Shown in pieces: positions 3,210-63,467 of a DNA stretch of 64,000 bases. Below the pieces are notes generated by a model. The model saw only the letters and a program-made list of their open reading frames with translations. It had not been told where the DNA came from and made no database searches. The stretch's first letter is position 1; each line of letters opens with the position of its first letter. Source of the stretch: Bacilli bacterium (GTDB lineage: Bacteria; Bacillota; Bacilli; JACDOE01); assembly GCA_041686735.1 (NCBI GenBank), contig JAWLDF010000005.1:70029-134028 (forward strand), given 5' to 3'. The translations under genes were made by a program, and so were the position numbers.

Positions 3210-3737
3210 TTATTCAACCTGATCCTTAAGATCCTTTACTCTTCCCGGAAAGATCAAACGGCAAATTTCATCTACAGATAAATGGGAAGTATCAATGGTC
3301 AAATGGGCAAAGTCGTATTTTCCCGACCGCTGTTGCAAAAGTTCTCTGACTTTTTTTTCGGGATCATCTCCGGCAAGGAGGGGTCTTTGCCCATCGTGGC
3401 GCACACGTTCCACAACCGCTTCAGGGGACGCTGTCAGGGCAACCACAAGTCCTCCTTTTAACATCAACTCAACATTTTCAGGGCGAAGGACAATGCCGCC
3501 CCCCGTCGTGATGATCTGTTCTTCTTCAGCAAGCAGGTGATGTAATATACGGCTTTCCTGTTCACGGAAAAACGACTCCCCTTTTGTGGAAAAAATATCC
3601 GGAATCGTTTGTCCGAGTTGCTCCTCAATCAGAGCATCCGTATCGATATGTTTCCAGCCGCTCAACTCGGCCAGCCTTTTCCCCACCGTGGTTTTTCCTG
3701 TTCCCATGAATCCTGTGAGAATAATGTTTTTTTTCAA
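3210..3737 (-). CDS. aroK: Shikimate kinase
   Basis: P-loop GFMGTGKTTVGK and shikimate kinase family conservation across 175 aa. Confidence 0.85.
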   Translation of the reverse strand: MKKNIILTGFMGTGKTTVGKRLAELSGWKHIDTDALIEEQLGQTIPDIFSTKGESFFREQESRILHHLLAEEEQIITTGGGIVLRPENVELMLKGGLVVALTASPEAVVERVRHDGQRPLLAGDDPEKKVRELLQQRSGKYDFAHLTIDTSHLSVDEICRLIFPGRVKDLKDQVE

Positions 3738-3803
3738 AATCGCGTCCCCCTTTTATTCGACACAGTTGTTGCTCAATCTCCTGCGTTTAACCATCCGCTT
3801 GGG

Positions 3804-3852
3804 TAAAAAAGGGCTGTTCAAAAGAGTGGCGACTCTTAAGAACAGCCCCTTC
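3804..3852 (-). terminator. Rho-independent terminator downstream of the zinc-peptidase gene
   Basis: On the minus strand, GGGCTGTTC...GAACAGCCC forms a hairpin followed by TTTTTTACC. Confidence 0.5.
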
Positions 3853-3875
3853 CCATAACATACCTGCGAATTGTA

Positions 3876-4562
3876 TTATTCGTCACTCGGCTGTAAAAAG
3901 ATCAGCACAAAACGAATCAATTCAAACAATGCCACAAGTGCGCTGGCTACATAAGTCAATGCGGCAGCGCCCAGCACTTTGTTGACGCCTCGTTCCTCAT
4001 TGTTGCGAATCATGCCTTCTTGAAGCATAAACACCTTCGCACGACTGCTTGCATTAAACTCTACCGGCAGAGTAACCAGTTGAAAGGCGACTGCAGCTGA
4101 AAAGAAAATGATTCCCAGCATAATCAAATCGGACCATTGAAACAAAATTCCCCCGATCAAAAGCATCGGAGCCATGGATGATCCGAAATTGGCAACCGGA
4201 AACATGCGGTGGCGAAGCACCAGTGCTCCATAAGCTTCCTTATGCTGAACGGCATGGCCCACCTCGTGGGCTGCAACCGAAACGGACGCGATCGAATTCC
4301 CGTAGTAAACCGGTTCTGACAGACGGACGCTTCGTGAAACCGGATCATAGTGGTCCGTTAATTTTCCGGGGACAGGTTCTACGGGAACATCATATAATCC
4401 GTTGCGGTCCAGAATACGACGGGCAACTTCAGCACCGGTTAATCCGGATGACGCCGCAATTTTCGACCATTTGCTAAAATTCCCTTTGACCCGAAACTGG
4501 GCCCAGATTGATAAAATAAATGCAGCAATCGTCAATAAATACATTAACCCGATAAGAGACAT
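3876..4562 (-). CDS. Membrane zinc metallopeptidase (PF04298-like neutral zinc metallopeptidase)
   Basis: HEVGHAVQH zinc-binding motif flanked by TM segments. 228 aa. Confidence 0.7.
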   Translation of the reverse strand: MSLIGLMYLLTIAAFILSIWAQFRVKGNFSKWSKIAASSGLTGAEVARRILDRNGLYDVPVEPVPGKLTDHYDPVSRSVRLSEPVYYGNSIASVSVAAHEVGHAVQHKEAYGALVLRHRMFPVANFGSSMAPMLLIGGILFQWSDLIMLGIIFFSAAVAFQLVTLPVEFNASSRAKVFMLQEGMIRNNEERGVNKVLGAAALTYVASALVALFELIRFVLIFLQPSDE

Positions 4563-12293: not shown

Positions 12294-15200
12294 CTAATAT
12301 TTTAATGAGACTTTTACGATCTCATTGCCAAAATTCACTTCAATGTGATGGTCGGAATCATTTCCCTTTTCATAGCTAATACGGTGAACAAGTACATTTT
12401 CTTTAATCAGACTCTCAAAACGTTGAATTTTTTCTTTAACATCATTCGTTGTTGAAAAATGGACCGATATATACTTCTCAACAGGTAAATCTAATTTTTT
12501 GCGTGTATCTTGTATTGCTCTGATTAATTCTCTGACTTGACCTTCCTCCACAAGTCGAGGTGTAAGTTTTAAATCCAACAGCACCTTTAATTGCCGGTCG
12601 CCGGCAATCTCAAATCCGGAAGCAACTTGATATTCGACGTTTATATGTTCCTTCTCTATTGTTATCGTCTGATCGTTTACATTAATTTGCAGGTGGCCCT
12701 TCTCTAATAATGACTTTTTGTCGGTTTCCGGGATATGCTCTACATATTCCTTTACTGCGTTAACCAGTTTACCGAATGCAGCACCTGCCGTTTTAAAATT
12801 CAATTTAAAAGCCGTTGACTCATACTGCGATAAGTCTTTTGTATATACAACATCTTTAACATTCAGCTCGTCTTTAATAATGTCTGTAAAGGGCTTTAAA
12901 ACACGTTCTCCTTCATTACTCCATACAATGATTTGTTGCAAAGGCTGCCTGACTTTTAAGTTTTTGGCATTGCGAATGCTACGACCGAGTTCCACTATTT
13001 TCAGGACTGTTTGCATGTCGGCCTCTAAAGCAGGATTAATCATTGAAGTATCAGCTTCCGGATAGTCCTGCAAATGAACACTATCTTGATGCAGTTTCAA
13101 ATGAATGTCTTCTGTCACATAAGGTATAAAAGGAGCTAACAGGCGGCTGACTGTGGTAAGTGTTTCAAATAGTGTTGAAAATGCTGCCCGTTTACCTTCT
13201 GAAAGCCCGGAAGCCCAAAAACGACTTCTGGATCGTCGTACATACCAATTACTTAATTCATCGACTAATAATGCAATTTCCCGTGTTGCTTGCGTAAATT
13301 GATACCGATCCATATAGTCATTTACAAGTTTAATTGTACTGTGCAGGCGGGAAAGTATCCACTCATCCAGAATAGTTTTCTTCCCTGTTTGCTGTCCGTC
13401 ATACACAAAGCCATCAATTTTAGCGTACATAGCATAAAACTTGTACGTATTATCCAGCGTGTCAATCAATTTTGATTTTGCATCCTGCACGATTCTTTTT
13501 GAAAAGCGTTTTGGATAAAAGGGAGAACTATCGACAAGAAATGCCCAACGTAGTGCATCTGCACCGTATTCCTCTATCAATTCTACAGGATCTAAAGCAT
13601 TTCCTTTGCTTTTCGACATTTTTTGACCGTTTTCGTCGAGTACATGTCCAAGCGACAGGACGTTTTTATAAGGTGCTTCTCCTGTGTACAGGGTAGAAAC
13701 AGCAAGCAGGCTGTAGAAAAATCCTCTCGTCTGGTCAATTCCTTCGATGACGACGTCTGCCGGAAATTGTGATTTGAATTTTTCTTTGTTTGCGAATGGA
13801 TAGTGATGCTGTGCGAATGGCATCGAACCACTATCAAACCAAACGTCTATAACTTCAGGTGTTCGTTGCATGACGCCTTCACATTTCGGACAGGTACAAT
13901 TCACCTCATCAATATAGGGTTTATGCAGCTCAATGTCATCCGGAATCAAAGTTGTCGCTAATTTTTGCAGGTCCCTGATACTGCCAGGAACTTCTTCATG
14001 ACCACAATCAGAACATACCCAGACATTTAAAGGTGTACCCCAGTACCGGTTTCTGCTTATATTCCAATCCACGAGATTTTCAAGAAAATGACCGAAGCGT
14101 CCATTTTTAATATGATCCGGATACCAATGAACAGTTGCATTGTTCGCGAGCATTTGATCTTTTAAAAAAGACATCTTGATAAACCAGCTATCCGTTGCAT
14201 AGTAGAGCAAAGGAGAGTCGCATCTCCAGCAATACGGGTAACTGTGCTCATATTTTTCCTTGTGGAAAAGAATGCCTTGATCGGAAAGCATTTTAATAAT
14301 GTCCACGTCACAATCTTTCACAAATCTTCCCTTCAGTTCTGTGACATCGGCTGTGTAACGTCCCTGTTGATCTACTACATTAATAAAGGACAAACCATTC
14401 TGCTGAACAGTTTTATAGTCATCTTCACCGTGTGCAGGCGCAATATGGACAATACCTGTTCCACTATCTTCAGTGACATAATCCGCTAATACAATATAAT
14501 GTCCTTTTTCAACGGTCACATAATTGAATGGCGGGGCATAACGTATGCCTGCAAATTCAAGACCGCTATGCTCACTTAAAATATTTACATGATCTCCAAG
14601 AACTTTTTCAACCAGGGATTTTGCAACAATATAAACCTGATTCTCCGTCTGTACACGAACATAGGTTAAATTTGGATTCATGGCGAGTGCAACGTTGGCC
14701 GGCAATGTCCACGGTGTCGTTGTCCAACCCAGGAAATATTCATCATCTGCATCAAGACGTTTAAATTTTACGGTAACCGATAAATCTTTTACATCTTTGT
14801 AGCCCTGTGCTACTTCGTGCGAACTTAATGTAGTTTGACATCTGGGGCAGTATGGCGATACGCGGTGGCCTTTATACAATAGGCCATCTTTGTGAACCTT
14901 ACTTAAAATGTTCCAGATACTTTCAATATATTCGTTGCTTAACGTCAAATAGGGACTCTCCATATCTACCCAATAACCCAATTGTTCCGTAAATGAACGC
15001 CATTTCTTCTCGTAGGTAAATACACTCTCCTTACATTTGTTGATAAAAGCTTCTACACCATAGCGTTCAATCTCCTGTTTCCCTGATATCCCAAGTTGTT
15101 TCTCCACACCAAGTTCGACCGGCAAACCATGTGTGTCCCAGCCGGCTTTTCTTTCCACCTGAAAACCTTTCATGGTTTTATAACGTGCAACAACATCTTT

Positions 15201-15389
15201 AATTGTTCGGCCAAAGGCATGTCCTACATGGGGCAGACCATTTGCAGTTGGTGGTCCCTCATAAAAAACAAAGGGGGTCTTTCCTTCTCTAAATTGAACA
15301 GACTGTCTAAATGTATTGCCTTCTGTCCAGTAACTACGGATGTGTTCTTCGCGCCGTACACCGGTATCTTTAATTTCATTTGCCTTCAT
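12294..15389 (-). CDS. ileS: Isoleucine--tRNA ligase, type 2 (long, eukaryote-like form)
   Basis: Class I HIGH region PPTANGLPHVGHAFGRTIKD and KMSKSKGN. About 1030 aa from MKANEIKD with a GGAGTG RBS. The track ORF start at 15440 adds 17 aa upstream that are probably not translated. Confidence 0.9.
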   Translation of the reverse strand: MKANEIKDTGVRREEHIRSYWTEGNTFRQSVQFREGKTPFVFYEGPPTANGLPHVGHAFGRTIKDVVARYKTMKGFQVERKAGWDTHGLPVELGVEKQLGISGKQEIERYGVEAFINKCKESVFTYEKKWRSFTEQLGYWVDMESPYLTLSNEYIESIWNILSKVHKDGLLYKGHRVSPYCPRCQTTLSSHEVAQGYKDVKDLSVTVKFKRLDADDEYFLGWTTTPWTLPANVALAMNPNLTYVRVQTENQVYIVAKSLVEKVLGDHVNILSEHSGLEFAGIRYAPPFNYVTVEKGHYIVLADYVTEDSGTGIVHIAPAHGEDDYKTVQQNGLSFINVVDQQGRYTADVTELKGRFVKDCDVDIIKMLSDQGILFHKEKYEHSYPYCWRCDSPLLYYATDSWFIKMSFLKDQMLANNATVHWYPDHIKNGRFGHFLENLVDWNISRNRYWGTPLNVWVCSDCGHEEVPGSIRDLQKLATTLIPDDIELHKPYIDEVNCTCPKCEGVMQRTPEVIDVWFDSGSMPFAQHHYPFANKEKFKSQFPADVVIEGIDQTRGFFYSLLAVSTLYTGEAPYKNVLSLGHVLDENGQKMSKSKGNALDPVELIEEYGADALRWAFLVDSSPFYPKRFSKRIVQDAKSKLIDTLDNTYKFYAMYAKIDGFVYDGQQTGKKTILDEWILSRLHSTIKLVNDYMDRYQFTQATREIALLVDELSNWYVRRSRSRFWASGLSEGKRAAFSTLFETLTTVSRLLAPFIPYVTEDIHLKLHQDSVHLQDYPEADTSMINPALEADMQTVLKIVELGRSIRNAKNLKVRQPLQQIIVWSNEGERVLKPFTDIIKDELNVKDVVYTKDLSQYESTAFKLNFKTAGAAFGKLVNAVKEYVEHIPETDKKSLLEKGHLQINVNDQTITIEKEHINVEYQVASGFEIAGDRQLKVLLDLKLTPRLVEEGQVRELIRAIQDTRKKLDLPVEKYISVHFSTTNDVKEKIQRFESLIKENVLVHRISYEKGNDSDHHIEVNFGNEIVKVSLKY

Positions 15390-15419
15390 TGATATCACTC
15401 CTGTACAAAATAAAATGTA

Positions 15420-15700
15420 GATCAAAAAACCCCGTCCCATGTAAGGGACGGGGTTAACCGTGATACCACCCTAATTCTATTGATCCGATCAATAGCTCTC
15501 AGCAACGTACAATCATACGTGTTCCTTGTAACGGTAGACACCCGGCCAGACTTACTCCAGGTTTCAGTCCGGCTTCTCAGAGAGGATTTTCACGTAACAC
15601 TCGAACACTGACTTTCACCAAAATGTCAGCTCTCTGTGGATCAAGACGAAACGTTACTCTTTCTCATCAACGAATTTGTGTATGCTTTTATTTGTATGCT
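15420..15700 (-). promoter_or_regulatory. T-box riboswitch leader of ileS
   Basis: On the minus strand: AGAGAG stem I element; a candidate AUC (Ile) specifier within GAAAAUCC; the conserved T-box AAUUAGGGUGGUAUCACGG; then the terminator hairpin CCCCGTCCCTTACATGGGACGGGG followed by TTTTTTGATC directly upstream of the ileS RBS. Confidence 0.8.
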
Positions 15701-15783: not shown

Positions 15784-16488
15784 TTACTGCTTTGCTTTCC
15801 TGTATCCCGCGGCAACAGCTTCTTCTTCGGTGCAAAACATTTGCTCTGCCTTTGTTGCATCATAATAACGTGTACCCGGCATATGATAAATCTTTTCTTT
15901 TTTTGAGTTGATGTTGCCTTTTATTTGGGGTTCAGCACAATTGTCGCTGTTTAAACGATCTTTATATGCTTCTCCCCACAAACCGTTGTTTTTCTCCCTC
16001 GCTTCGCGTTCAAGTTTAACAAATTTTTTGGAAAACATTACGTTTGGCGGCACAGTCATCGTATTTGCGTACCCTTCGATCAGAAGGGTCTCATTATACA
16101 TTGTTTTTTCATTCTCAATGAAAACATACCGTAACAATCTTCCGTATTTATCTTTATCTCCGACATCTTGAAACATATACACTTTGTTACCCGTTAATCG
16201 TTCTCCGCTAAAATGACTGGCTTCTTTACCGAAAAATTCAACTTTTCCATAACTTTCAGGACAGTTTACTCCAATGAGTCTGACCCTCTGGTCGGATTCC
16301 GTCACGAAAGTGTCGCCATCTATCGTGCGCTTTACGGTTGTGATCTCATACTTTTTATCTTTTAACTCAGGATAATTGCTGAAAATTTGAGCTGCAAACG
16401 CATCTGCTTCCCTGCTCTGATTGTCAGGGAGTGAACACCCAGCCATGATGATGAAAAAGAGTAAACTGATTAGAAGATATTGTTTCAT
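15784..16488 (-). CDS. Thermonuclease (SNase-like) lipoprotein with C-terminal KIYHxPG..YY motif domain
   Basis: Lipobox IIMAGCS, SNase core (DGDTF...RLIGVNCPE...YGRLL), and C-terminal IYHMPGTRYYDATK...FCTEEEAVAAGYRKAK. 234 aa. Confidence 0.75.
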   Translation of the reverse strand: MKQYLLISLLFFIIMAGCSLPDNQSREADAFAAQIFSNYPELKDKKYEITTVKRTIDGDTFVTESDQRVRLIGVNCPESYGKVEFFGKEASHFSGERLTGNKVYMFQDVGDKDKYGRLLRYVFIENEKTMYNETLLIEGYANTMTVPPNVMFSKKFVKLEREAREKNNGLWGEAYKDRLNSDNCAEPQIKGNINSKKEKIYHMPGTRYYDATKAEQMFCTEEEAVAAGYRKAKQ

Positions 16489-16689
16489 CGCAACTCCTCA
16501 CCTGGTTCTTAAGAATCCTTGCAAATTGATCTTGGACTTCGTCTCCTTTTTGTCTCTTACGCATTTATATGTTAAAGCAGGGCGAGCGCTCGTTCAATGG
16601 ATTTTTTGGGATTTTTTAAAAAATCATATTGCAAACCGCCAACGGATTTGTTACTATTCGAGTTAATAAGTTTTTCAACATTGGTGATA

Positions 16690-17005
16690 AACCCAACGTC
16701 GTTGATAAGGAAAAGTAAGTGGAGCATTTGTTCCTCAGAGAGCCGGCGGCAGCTGAGAAGCCGGTGAACAACCTTCACCGAACATCCCCTTGGAGACGTA
16801 AACCGAACGACAGGGATTGAACGTTTCTGTTTAGTAGGCTTTACCGGACGTTCCCACGTTACAGGGAAACAGCAATGAACACGTTGCTGAATGAGTTGCC
16901 GATCCATGACCAAACCATTTTTTCGTCTTACTGATCATGAATCGGAATCAGGGTGGTACCGCGAGTAACTCTCGTCCCTGTCGGGGATGAGAGTTTTTTT
17001 ATTAT
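16690..17005 (+). promoter_or_regulatory. T-box riboswitch leader upstream of the threonine dehydratase gene
   Basis: Candidate promoter TTGCAA-17-TACTAT near 16648-16676. AGAGAG stem I element near 16735. Conserved T-box AATCAGGGTGGTACCGCGAG at 16946-16965. Terminator hairpin CTCTCGTCCCTGTCGGGGATGAGAG plus T7 at 16971-17005. Specifier unresolved: AUC in CGAACAUCC or ACC in GAACAACC. Confidence 0.7.
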
Positions 17006-17075
17006 TTGGGAGGCGATGATTACGAGTACTTCTGCAAGGAATCTTCACATAGACCATGGACATCTTGAAAAAGGT

Positions 17076-18071
17076 ATGGAGGTGCATGAAATTGGGGATT
17101 ACAGTGTTAGTTTTCAGAATATTATGGAAGCAGAATATTATTTAGGCAGAATCGTCCATCAGACACCATTGCAACATTCGCATACGTTCAGTCAGATGAC
17201 TGAATGTTCCGTCTATCAAAAACTTGAAAATCTGCAAAAGACGGGGGCTTTCAAGATCCGGGGGGCTTACAATAAAGTGGCACACCTCTCTCCAGAGGAA
17301 AGAGCCAGAGGGATCGTGACCGCTTCTGCGGGAAACCACGCCCAGGGCGTATCGCTTGCTGCCCATAAATTCGGATGTCCCGCCACGATCGTCATGCCCA
17401 AAGGCGCTCCGCAATCCAAAATTGAAGCGACAAAAGGGTACGGGGCACGGGTGGTTCTTCACGGTCACAATTATAACGAATCTTATGCGAAAGCGCTGGA
17501 AATATGTGAACAGGAAGGGGCCACGTTCGTCCATGCTTTCGATGATCCACACGTAATCGCCGGACAGGGAACGATCGGTCTGGAAATTGTCAATGAATTG
17601 CCCTATGTCGATGCCATCATTGTTCCCGTTGGCGGAGGCGGGCTGATCAGTGGGATTGCCATCGCAGCAAAAACAGTAAATCCGGAAATTAAAATTATCG
17701 GAGTTGAACCGGAAGGAGCCAATTCAGGTTACCTTTCATGGAAATCGAATAAAATGACGACCATTGAAAATCCCAATACCATTGCCGACGGTCTTTCCGT
17801 CAAAAGCCTCGGCAGGCTGCCTTTCGAGTTGATCACATCTTATGTCGATGATTTCGTTACCGTGAGTGACCAGCAAATCGAACATGCCATGTACCTTTTT
17901 CTTGAGAGAAGCAAACTGCTCGTTGAAGGAGCGGGAGCATGTTCCCTTGCCGGCCTGCTGCGATTAAAAGACGAGTTAAAAGGAAAAAATGTTGTGCTGA
18001 TTGTCAGCGGCGGGAACGTTGATCTCAGTAAATTAAACACAATCTCCCACCCCCGTACGGCGACCGTATAA
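17076..18071 (+). CDS. Threonine dehydratase / threonine ammonia-lyase, short form without C-terminal regulatory domain
   Basis: PLP-lysine context FKIRGA, the glycine-rich loop (SAGNHAQG) and a GGGGL loop. About 330 aa, so no ACT-like IlvA regulatory domain. Start chosen at MEVHEIG; the longer track ORF start would overlap the T-box terminator. Confidence 0.8.
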   Translation: MEVHEIGDYSVSFQNIMEAEYYLGRIVHQTPLQHSHTFSQMTECSVYQKLENLQKTGAFKIRGAYNKVAHLSPEERARGIVTASAGNHAQGVSLAAHKFGCPATIVMPKGAPQSKIEATKGYGARVVLHGHNYNESYAKALEICEQEGATFVHAFDDPHVIAGQGTIGLEIVNELPYVDAIIVPVGGGGLISGIAIAAKTVNPEIKIIGVEPEGANSGYLSWKSNKMTTIENPNTIADGLSVKSLGRLPFELITSYVDDFVTVSDQQIEHAMYLFLERSKLLVEGAGACSLAGLLRLKDELKGKNVVLIVSGGNVDLSKLNTISHPRTATV

Positions 18072-18132
18072 AGGAAATTCAGTTTCTAACCGGCCTTCTG
18101 CGCATGCGAACGGCCCGAAAAGTGTAAAAATC

Positions 18133-18172
18133 CGTCTCCCTTTTGTCGGATCAGGGGGACGGACTTTTCATT
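18133..18172. terminator. Bidirectional intrinsic terminator between convergent genes
   Basis: AAAAATCCGTCTCCC...GGGGGACGGACTTTT: hairpin with A-run on one side and T-run on the other. Confidence 0.5.
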
Positions 18173-18843
18173 TACCGGCTCTTTCCTGTCACTATGCGAT
18201 AAAAAAAATCTCTGATTTGATCGACCATCGTCAGCAACTTACCCATAAACAACACGATATCGGTACGATAAGTGAGAGCCAGATTTTTCCCAATAGCCTT
18301 GCTTCCCACAATCGCCGAACTGGTAATTCCGGCGACGAGAATGGAAATCACGGATTCATAGGTAGTCAGTTGATCACTTAACATCACAATCTGAATCACG
18401 ATGGACGCTCCGGCAAAACCGGCAATATAACCGGCAACGTCGCCGATAACATCATTGAAAAAATTGGCGTAACGGTCCGCATGGCGGATGATATGGATGC
18501 ATTTTTTCGCACCGTATACTTTTTTGGCCGCCATGGAATTAAAGGGGGTAATATCGACAGCCGTGATGGCGACTCCGACCATATCCGTTACAGCCCCGAT
18601 GATAACAATGAAGATCAACGTTATCATTCCGAGTAACAACGACGATTGTCGCAACAGTAAATCACTGATCGAGCTGATTCCTACGGCAATAATAAAAGTC
18701 CAGATCGAAATGATGAGACTCCATTTCGTGAAGATTTTCTTTCGTTCCAGACGTTCAGGTTGTTTTTTTGTCTTTGATCTGCCGGCGGGCCAAAGTTTAA
18801 TGACTGATGGGATAAGCCCCGGCCTTTCCCCTTCTTTAGCCAA
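18172..18843 (-). CDS. Uncharacterized integral membrane protein with a basic N-terminal tail
   Basis: 223 aa with about 5 TM segments and GxxxG-rich helices (DVIGDVAGYIAGFAGA). It lies next to the CBS-pair gene. No confident family assignment. Confidence 0.5.
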   Translation of the reverse strand: MAKEGERPGLIPSVIKLWPAGRSKTKKQPERLERKKIFTKWSLIISIWTFIIAVGISSISDLLLRQSSLLLGMITLIFIVIIGAVTDMVGVAITAVDITPFNSMAAKKVYGAKKCIHIIRHADRYANFFNDVIGDVAGYIAGFAGASIVIQIVMLSDQLTTYESVISILVAGITSSAIVGSKAIGKNLALTYRTDIVLFMGKLLTMVDQIRDFFYRIVTGKSR

Positions 18844-63392: not shown

Positions 63393-63467
63393 TGGCTGGG
63401 CAGGCTGGGTTCGAACCAGCGCATCACGGAGTCAAAGTCCGTTGCCTTACCACTTGGCTACTGCCCA
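63393..63467 (-). tRNA. tRNA-Gln (anticodon UUG)
   Basis: Reverse complement TGGGCAGTAGCCAAGTGGTAAGGCAACGGACTTTGACTCCGTGATGCGCTGGTTCGAACCCAGCCTGCCCAGCCA folds as a cloverleaf with a CTTTGAC anticodon loop and encoded CCA. It is near-identical in form to Bacillus tRNA-Gln. Confidence 0.85.

Follow-up and report, generated by a model that had tools for sequence, protein, structure and literature searches.

The locus considered here lies in a 64,000-nucleotide (nt) stretch of Bacilli bacterium DNA (contig JAWLDF010000005.1, positions 70,029 to 134,028 of the forward strand, assembly GCA_041686735.1), which we call the window and in which the first letter is position 1. There, a T-box leader precedes a gene for a short threonine dehydratase (threonine ammonia-lyase) that has no ACT domain, which raises the questions of which tRNA governs the gene, what such an enzyme would do under this control, and where its translation starts. 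We consider it very probable that an isoleucine-specific T-box attenuator governs this gene, which is monocistronic and whose product would be a threonine ammonia-lyase devoid of any regulatory domain; the evidence is given below.

The T-box leader and its specifier codon

An Rfam covariance-model scan of the window matched RF00230 at positions 16693–16982 of the plus strand over the full model (1–219), with a score of 115.6 bits (E = 7e-25) against a gathering threshold of 93 bits. The parts of the leader were located as follows.

16693–16982, plus strand: T-box leader with Stem I (K-turn, specifier loop, AG bulge and distal loop), Stem II, IIA/B, III and the antiterminator (RF00230)
16784–16786, plus strand: specifier AUC (Ile), within GAA-C-AUC-C at 16780–16787 (RF00230 alignment)
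16946–16965, plus strand: T-box sequence AAUCAGGGUGGUACCGCGAG, with the bulge UGGU at 16953–16956 (RF00230 alignment and sequence)
16967–17000, plus strand: intrinsic terminator, with a 13-pair hairpin at 16967–16995 and T7 at 16994–17000 (terminator scan)

The RF00230 alignment of Stem I contains AAAGUAAG, CAGAGAG and GAA-C-AUC-C, and the diagnostic parts of this stem (a specifier loop made of an AGUA/GAA S-turn and then the codon, an AG bulge, and a distal loop) were all found; the AG bulge falls on AGAGAG at 16737–16742. The core T-box sequence, GGGTGGTACCGCG, occupies 16950–16962 and includes the UGGU bulge, which in T-box leaders pairs with the acceptor (3') end of the tRNA. Taken as AGGGUGGUACCGCG at 16949–16962, it is the conserved T-box with a UGGN bulge, set in an antiterminator that competes with the terminator. 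The terminator was found independently of the RF00230 match. It is mutually exclusive with the antiterminator, as CUCGUCCCU belongs both to the 5' arm of the hairpin and to the antiterminator's 3' strand, an arrangement known from canonical T-boxes. The whole leader also folded more stably than shuffled versions of itself (z = -2.6). The first-pass annotation of this DNA, made from the letters alone, had described a complete T-box leader with an AGAGAG Stem I element, a T-box sequence, and a terminator hairpin followed by seven U residues, and had staked this reading on a comparison with RF00230; each of these elements was recovered, and the comparison came out above the threshold.

As read from the alignment, the specifier is the isoleucine codon AUC. 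This assignment follows from three observations. In the window, GAA-C-AUC-C forms the 3' side of the specifier loop. The T-box of the isoleucyl-tRNA synthetase gene ileS, which lies in the same window and served as an internal positive control, has GAA-A-AUC-C at the equal model positions. Lastly, AUC stands at the specifier position in all ten orthologous leaders that we compared, while the neighboring helix bases vary. The base after AUC is a C and not the usual purine, and this is also the case in the ileS T-box.

Upstream of the leader, a plausible promoter was seen, with the elements that the first-pass annotation had named.

16629–16657, plus strand: promoter-like site, with -35 element TTGCAA at 16629–16634, a 17-nt spacer, TG at 16649–16650 and -10 element TACTAT at 16652–16657 (sequence)

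These elements agree with the consensus at 8 of 12 positions, a match no better than chance alone would give, and as this falls under the threshold of the promoter scan, the site was not listed by that program.

The enzyme, its linkage to the T-box and its predicted role

The conserved coding frame downstream of the terminator was delimited as follows.

17094–18071, plus strand: frame of the threonine ammonia-lyase without ACT domain, about 326 amino acids, from Gly-Asp-Tyr-Ser-Val... to the stop codon TAA at 18069–18071 (PALP, TIGR01127, 2gn0 and alignment)

The mechanically called open reading frame (ORF) is longer, at 16953–18071 (372 amino acids; public record P0001), and opens with a GTG at 16953 inside the antiterminator; since it begins inside the T-box, this start cannot be right. 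The enzyme frame is open back through the terminator into the T-box (16953–17090), and is conserved from the GGG at 17094 onward. Its sole domain is PF00291 (PALP), at residues 68–353 of the 372-residue ORF (E = 9e-91), and the ORF ends about 10 residues past this domain. As only about 100 nt separate the dehydratase stop codon from a convergent ORF, there is no room for a hidden ACT domain downstream. The earlier description of a TdcB-sized dehydratase of about 330 residues without an ACT or other regulatory domain was therefore accurate in both length and domain content, and its nearest solved relative is indeed the catabolic TdcB.

Among the profiles, models of threonine ammonia-lyases scored highest. 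TIGR01127 (ilvA_1Cterm) matched with 423.5 bits against a cutoff of 378.75, over profile positions 1–294 of 380 only, and in the alignment the last ~75 residues of relatives of 401–404 amino acids are absent from the window enzyme. The TdcB equivalog model NF006389 gave 385.9 bits, under its cutoff of 453, and the TdcB structure 2gn0 was the best solved-structure match, with 315.6 bits versus 220–255 for the biosynthetic enzymes. The family-invariant blocks FKIRGA, SAGNHAQG and GGGGL, which we take to include the pyridoxal phosphate (PLP) lysine and the phosphate-binding loop, are present in the aligned window enzyme. The gene is monocistronic and stands between a nuclease gene and the convergent ORF, which is of unknown function.

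We then asked how widely this enzyme and this leader occur together. The nearest homologue of the window protein is 70% identical and has the local gene order in common with it; further short forms, at 55–67% identity, come from Calditerricola, Paenibacillus, Aneurinibacillus, Kyrpidia and Alicyclobacillaceae, and forms of 401–407 amino acids, several with ACT Pfam hits, follow at ~55% identity. Short-form homologues number several hundred in public data, and complete genomes such as CP002017.1 are among their carriers. The DNA of ten orthologous loci encoding the form without ACT domain was obtained (the window, L036, L037/38, L039/40, L041/42, L043, L044, L125, L126 and L127), and an RF00230 match stood directly ahead of the gene in 10 of 10, at 97.8–142.8 bits and with the specifier AUC each time; genomes of Paenibacillus, Aneurinibacillus and Kyrpidia and Calditerricola-like genomes are among them. 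The comparison group consisted of 76 complete forms of ~400 amino acids, the length class with ACT domain, obtained from a metagenome scan with the alignment (45–55% identity), and only one of these (L053) had a T-box in the 700 nt ahead of the gene, also with AUC, although the contrast between 10 of 10 and 1 of 76 overstates the regulatory difference, as the ~400-amino-acid forms may sit in operons whose leaders lie beyond the 700 nt scanned. In four metagenome loci (L068, L071, L076 and L079), T-box-like 13-mers were present but fell below the Rfam threshold. A genome scan with the single protein returned distant relatives only (37–50% identity), and their loci were used as negative controls. 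By this comparison of sequences, the pairing of an isoleucine T-box with a dehydratase lacking the ACT domain is a conserved design and not an oddity of one genome.

We propose that, when tRNA-Ile(GAU) is charged, the terminator would form and transcription would stop ahead of the gene. When it is uncharged, its anticodon would pair with the AUC at 16784–16786 and its free 3' end with the UGGU bulge, which would stabilize the antiterminator and allow the enzyme gene to be transcribed. The enzyme would convert threonine to 2-oxobutyrate, the committed isoleucine precursor, so that isoleucine limitation would turn on a feedback-insensitive dehydratase. The insensitivity to isoleucine is suggested by the missing ACT domain, and control would then have shifted from allostery to the level of expression. 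The elements from which this scheme is built are established here, namely the T-box with its terminator and its specifier AUC, the set of domains in the enzyme, and the conserved link between leader and gene. The dependence on tRNA-Ile, the activity of the enzyme and its biosynthetic role are predicted, and the part in isoleucine supply, which the first-pass annotation had already suggested, is supported by the specifier and by the conservation across several families of isoleucine-tRNA control over an enzyme forming 2-oxobutyrate.

Several points weigh against this scheme. Every step of it is derived from sequence. The substrate specificity is inferred, because the TdcB score is below cutoff and TIGR01127 was passed on the catalytic domain alone. 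Furthermore, only 64 kb of the genome is in view, and neither ilv nor leu genes were found within it; a canonical IlvA could be encoded elsewhere, in which case the enzyme could be a back-up source of 2-oxobutyrate.

The points about substrate bear on the first alternative, in which the protein belongs to PLP fold type II but acts on something other than threonine, whether as a dehydratase of serine, a racemase of serine or aspartate, an ammonia-lyase of 3-hydroxyaspartate or the like. The model for threo-3-hydroxy-L-aspartate ammonia-lyase did match strongly, at 356 bits, but below its cutoff of 452, and serine racemases were matched in the PDB. However, the top scores went to threonine ammonia-lyase models and TdcB, and control by isoleucine tRNA suits the production of 2-oxobutyrate and none of these other reactions, so that we regard this alternative as improbable. 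Slightly less likely still is a catabolic, TdcB-type dehydratase that degrades threonine or serine for energy and stands beside the T-box incidentally. The resemblance to the TdcB structure and the missing regulatory domain are what such an enzyme would lead one to expect, but its TdcB equivalog score is below cutoff, no tdc operon surrounds the gene (the neighbors encode a nuclease, a CBS protein and FtsW/RodA), the isoleucine-specific T-box is kept in ten orthologous loci from several families, and there is no evident logic in a catabolic enzyme induced only by uncharged isoleucine tRNA. That the leader senses tRNA-Thr through ACC, making the enzyme responsive to threonine status, is scarcely credible: the first-pass annotation was right that AUC and ACC both occur near the loop and could not choose between them, but the ACC at 16777–16779 only adjoins the specifier loop and is paired by the covariance model within the 3' strand of the Stem I helix, while AUC takes the specifier position and is the codon retained in the orthologues.

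The start of the dehydratase gene

The N-termini of homologues in the databases are annotated very differently, being up to ~50 residues too long (back through the terminator) or ~17 residues too short. In the window, the strongest initiation signal lies in a register other than that of the enzyme.

17078–17084, plus strand: Shine-Dalgarno (SD) sequence GGAGGTG (anti-SD duplex of -13.0 kcal/mol for the start at 17092)
17092–17145, plus strand: ORF in the +1 register, with TTG at 17092–17094, GGG at 17095–17097 and ATT (Ile) at 17098–17100; 17 sense codons, then TAG at 17143–17145 (SD scoring and conservation)

We scored the anti-SD pairing of every ATG, GTG and TTG of the start region. In the window, the best in-frame codon reached -6.1 kcal/mol, versus -13.0 for TTG 17092, and ATG 17076 and GTG 17082 were worse. 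The +1-register codon, which has the strong SD 6–7 nt ahead of it, was the best of all candidates in eight loci and second in one; in L036 an in-frame GTG came first. The window has a second ATG in the +1 register (17086–17088), two codons before TTG 17092 and 1 nt past the SD, and both of these codons lead into G_GGG_AUU.

The ten loci have one block in common, consisting of a strong SD (GGAGGTG or nearly so, with GGTG invariant), 5–7 nt, and N-[T/A]-T-GGG-[G/A]AT-T. Read in the enzyme frame, this block encodes X-Gly-Asp/Asn-(Tyr/Phe/Cys/Trp), where the codon for X is ATT (the window and L044), CTT, GTT (three loci), CAT, AAT or GAT, and is GTG in L036 only. Shifted by one base, X becomes TTG or ATG in 9 of the 10 loci, and in these nine the +1-register start is followed by GGG (or GGA) and AUU. 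Twenty more N-terminally extended proteins have I, V, L, D, N or H as X, all of which fit N[T/A]T. The constraint extends to synonymous positions: the Gly codon is GGG in all ten loci, when GGG makes up 10–42% of the Gly codons elsewhere in these genes, and the codon after it ends in T in all ten, despite GAT:GAC ratios elsewhere of 1:13, 4:12 and 5:11 in some genes. Three neighboring synonymous positions are thus fixed against codon bias, with naive products of these codon frequencies of 3e-8 and 2e-4, which are upper bounds on significance as the loci are not independent.

Beyond the ten, the motif was found in one (L104) of 112 more distant dehydratase loci. This locus encodes a 405-amino-acid form and comes from a metagenome contig rich in AT. 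Its +1 register reads ATG-GGA-ATT-ACA-TGA at 1499–1513, the stop codon overlapping an in-frame ATG (ATGA), and it lacks a T-box. The motif could be related to the start cassette here or have arisen by chance (~0.2 such matches expected). The ~400-amino-acid form in L053, which is linked to a T-box, has an ordinary AAAGGAGG-N6-ATG start.

The +1-register product would begin fMet-Gly-Ile and stop after 4 to 26 codons, and neither the peptide nor the position of its stop is conserved. The enzyme frame, by comparison, is coding from Gly-Asp-Tyr onward, as judged by amino-acid conservation, by its alignment with the TdcB N-terminus, and by L043, where 6 nt are inserted and the frame is kept. We consider it somewhat more likely than not that most of these genes have their enzyme frame reached from an out-of-frame start.

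Three routes into the enzyme frame were considered and rejected. Termination and reinitiation would depend on a +1-register ORF that ends after 4–26 codons at non-homologous places, usually with no start codon nearby, and it cannot explain the product, because the residues from Gly-Asp-Tyr onward are conserved and aligned with the N-terminus of TdcB. Transcriptional slippage would have to act on a G run of just 3–4 bases. Initiation at the in-frame codon X would have to use ATT, CTT, GTT, CAT, AAT or GAT.

As reinitiation does not account for the conserved enzyme frame, the only route that we saw is a -1 slip of the peptidyl-tRNA-Gly. We therefore propose, tentatively and at less than even confidence, that the dehydratase would be made only through a -1 frameshift at the second codon and that the shift itself would be an isoleucine sensor. 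Ribosomes would start at UUG 17092, aided by the strong SD, place Gly-tRNA on GGG, and then await Ile-tRNA at AUU 17098–17100. With plentiful Ile-tRNA, they would stay in the wrong frame and terminate when 17 codons had been read; with scarce Ile-tRNA, the peptidyl-tRNA-Gly would slip back by one base on G_GGG, so that the A site would hold GAU (or AAU) and translation would proceed in the frame of the enzyme. The P-site codon allows this re-pairing in all ten loci (G_GGG or G_GGA), and the A-site codon of the starting frame at the slip is always AUU, which is read by tRNA-Ile(GAU), the same tRNA as is sensed by the T-box. No conserved downstream RNA structure was found at the slip site (-1.7 kcal/mol, no covariation). 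By analogy with dnaX, the slip could be helped by the SD, which would still be paired, at 8–10 nt behind the codon in the P site, once the ribosome has translocated for the first time.

The competing explanation is normal translation from an in-frame start (in the window GTG 17082, ATG 17076 or ATG 17016), with the out-of-frame UUG or AUG being an accident or the start of a decoy upstream ORF that lowers expression. The observations in its favor are those that count against the frameshift: the window has an in-frame ATG and GTG, weak as they are, 15 and 9 nt before the conserved N-terminus; L036, the closest relative, has its in-frame GTG exactly at the conserved position; and our literature searches found no described precedent for a -1 shift at codon 2. 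However, an in-frame start upstream is impossible in L043, where an in-frame stop codon lies 9 nt before X, and in other loci the in-frame candidates fall within the terminator or ahead of the SD, so that no in-frame start is shared consistently by the loci. An in-frame start would also have to contend with the far weaker SD pairing, with a codon before Gly that varies while always giving [A/T]TG in the +1 register, and with the three adjacent synonymous positions held against codon bias. We consider this explanation less likely than not.

Relation to known systems and genomic context

The leader resembles the Bacillota T-boxes of RF00230, which precede aminoacyl-tRNA synthetase genes, biosynthesis genes and ilv operons with ilvA, in its full architecture, specifier loop, UGGN bulge and terminator/antiterminator. 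Published lists of T-box-controlled genes in Bacillota already include ilvA (COG1171; PMC12452182), and this part of the locus is therefore a known kind of system. It differs in that one isoleucine T-box here precedes a monocistronic dehydratase gene without ACT domain, and not an ilv operon or a regulated IlvA. Our literature searches found no paper on a T-box paired with a short dehydratase, and Wels 2008 does not mention threonine dehydratase.

With the medium-form threonine ammonia-lyases (TIGR01127), the enzyme shares a catalytic domain that is 53–58% identical and scores above the model cutoff, but it lacks their C-terminal ACT-like domain, and the medium forms of ~400 amino acids start in frame in the ordinary way and are seldom preceded immediately by a T-box. 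The TdcB enzyme known from Salmonella and E. coli (2gn0) is comparable in size (~330 amino acids) and in having PALP only, besides being the best match of known structure. The tdc genes are under anaerobic and catabolite control, whereas the gene in the window has a product below the equivalog cutoff, no tdc operon and predicted control by isoleucine tRNA.

The proposed frameshift also has relatives among known regulatory devices. In the enterobacterial ilv leader peptides, a translating ribosome near the 5' end of the mRNA reads Ile codons to sense charged tRNA-Ile, as it would here; there stalling alters the folding of a terminator, whereas here the reading frame would change and transcription would be separately under the T-box. 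In prfB, which also has a regulatory frameshift early in its ORF, the shift is +1 at a stop codon, whereas the one proposed here is -1 at codon 2. A further likeness is to -1 frameshifting at hungry codons (Gallant and Lindsley), which combines re-pairing one base back (as on G_GGG), an A-site codon of the limiting amino acid, and an upstream SD. Slippage of this kind, by a P-site tRNA while the A site waits for a scarce aminoacyl-tRNA, has been described in laboratory constructs (Barak, Lindsley and Gallant 1996, cited by PMC3500957), and the principle of a short first frame as a sensor has been described (PMC5009743). That 2016 review knew of no natural trans-frame proteins specific to starvation (PMC5009743), and our own search of the literature found none.

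The genes next to the dehydratase include the following.

15441–15679, minus strand: second isoleucine T-box (AUC), before the ileS gene (RF00230, 141.7 bits)
12294–15440, minus strand: gene for a type-2 isoleucyl-tRNA synthetase, ORF of 1048 amino acids (TIGR00392, 953.9 bits)

The product of this ileS gene is related to MupA/MupB, with 1289 bits for a MupA-like model whose cutoff is 1900. Its T-box has a promoter near consensus (TTGACA-17-TAAAAT with TG, 15743–15715). The two isoleucine T-boxes diverge within 1.3 kb, the one of ileS being 1 kb off on the other strand, and between the two units lies a gene of the staphylococcal nuclease family with a C-terminal 'sunset' domain (15784–16488, minus strand). 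The same nuclease family adjoins the dehydratase in L036 (3788–4495) and L037 (2758–3411), so that the neighborhood is conserved in these two relatives. In the Calditerricola-like L037/L038, a gene of the branched-chain aminotransferase family (Aminotran_4, 3574–4545), without a T-box of its own, immediately precedes the unit of T-box and dehydratase. On the other side in the window, an imperfect GC-rich hairpin, TCCGTCTCCC...GGGGGACGGA and then CTTTTCATTT, occupies 18128–18170, past the stop codon of the dehydratase and before the convergent ORF (18172–18843). It probably serves as a terminator for both genes; a bulge in its stem kept it out of the scan's list. Besides the T-boxes, the only RNA family match in the window was a tRNA-Gln (UUG) gene (63393–63467, minus strand).

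What the first-pass annotation saw at this locus has been confirmed and its interpretation supported, but it missed that the ribosome-binding site points to an out-of-frame start. The T-box case is ordinary, though neatly conserved; what is notable is this conserved start together with the Ile codon at the proposed slip site. Regulation by hungry codons was reportedly predicted decades ago from laboratory work, and we know of no case documented in nature. The T-box unit indicates that a lineage can replace allosteric feedback, lost with the ACT domain, by tRNA-sensing control of expression, and it gives a firm functional call to a family that is labelled inconsistently in databases as catabolic or biosynthetic. 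The start-codon anomaly explains why gene callers have given this dehydratase family such wildly differing N-termini, and it makes these genes a candidate, simple and open to testing, for a frameshift in nature by which the level of charged tRNA-Ile is read. If the proposal is true, the shift would be a natural case of hungry-codon frameshifting used in regulation and, together with the isoleucine T-box, would place an enzyme that has lost its allosteric brake under isoleucine control in two stages.

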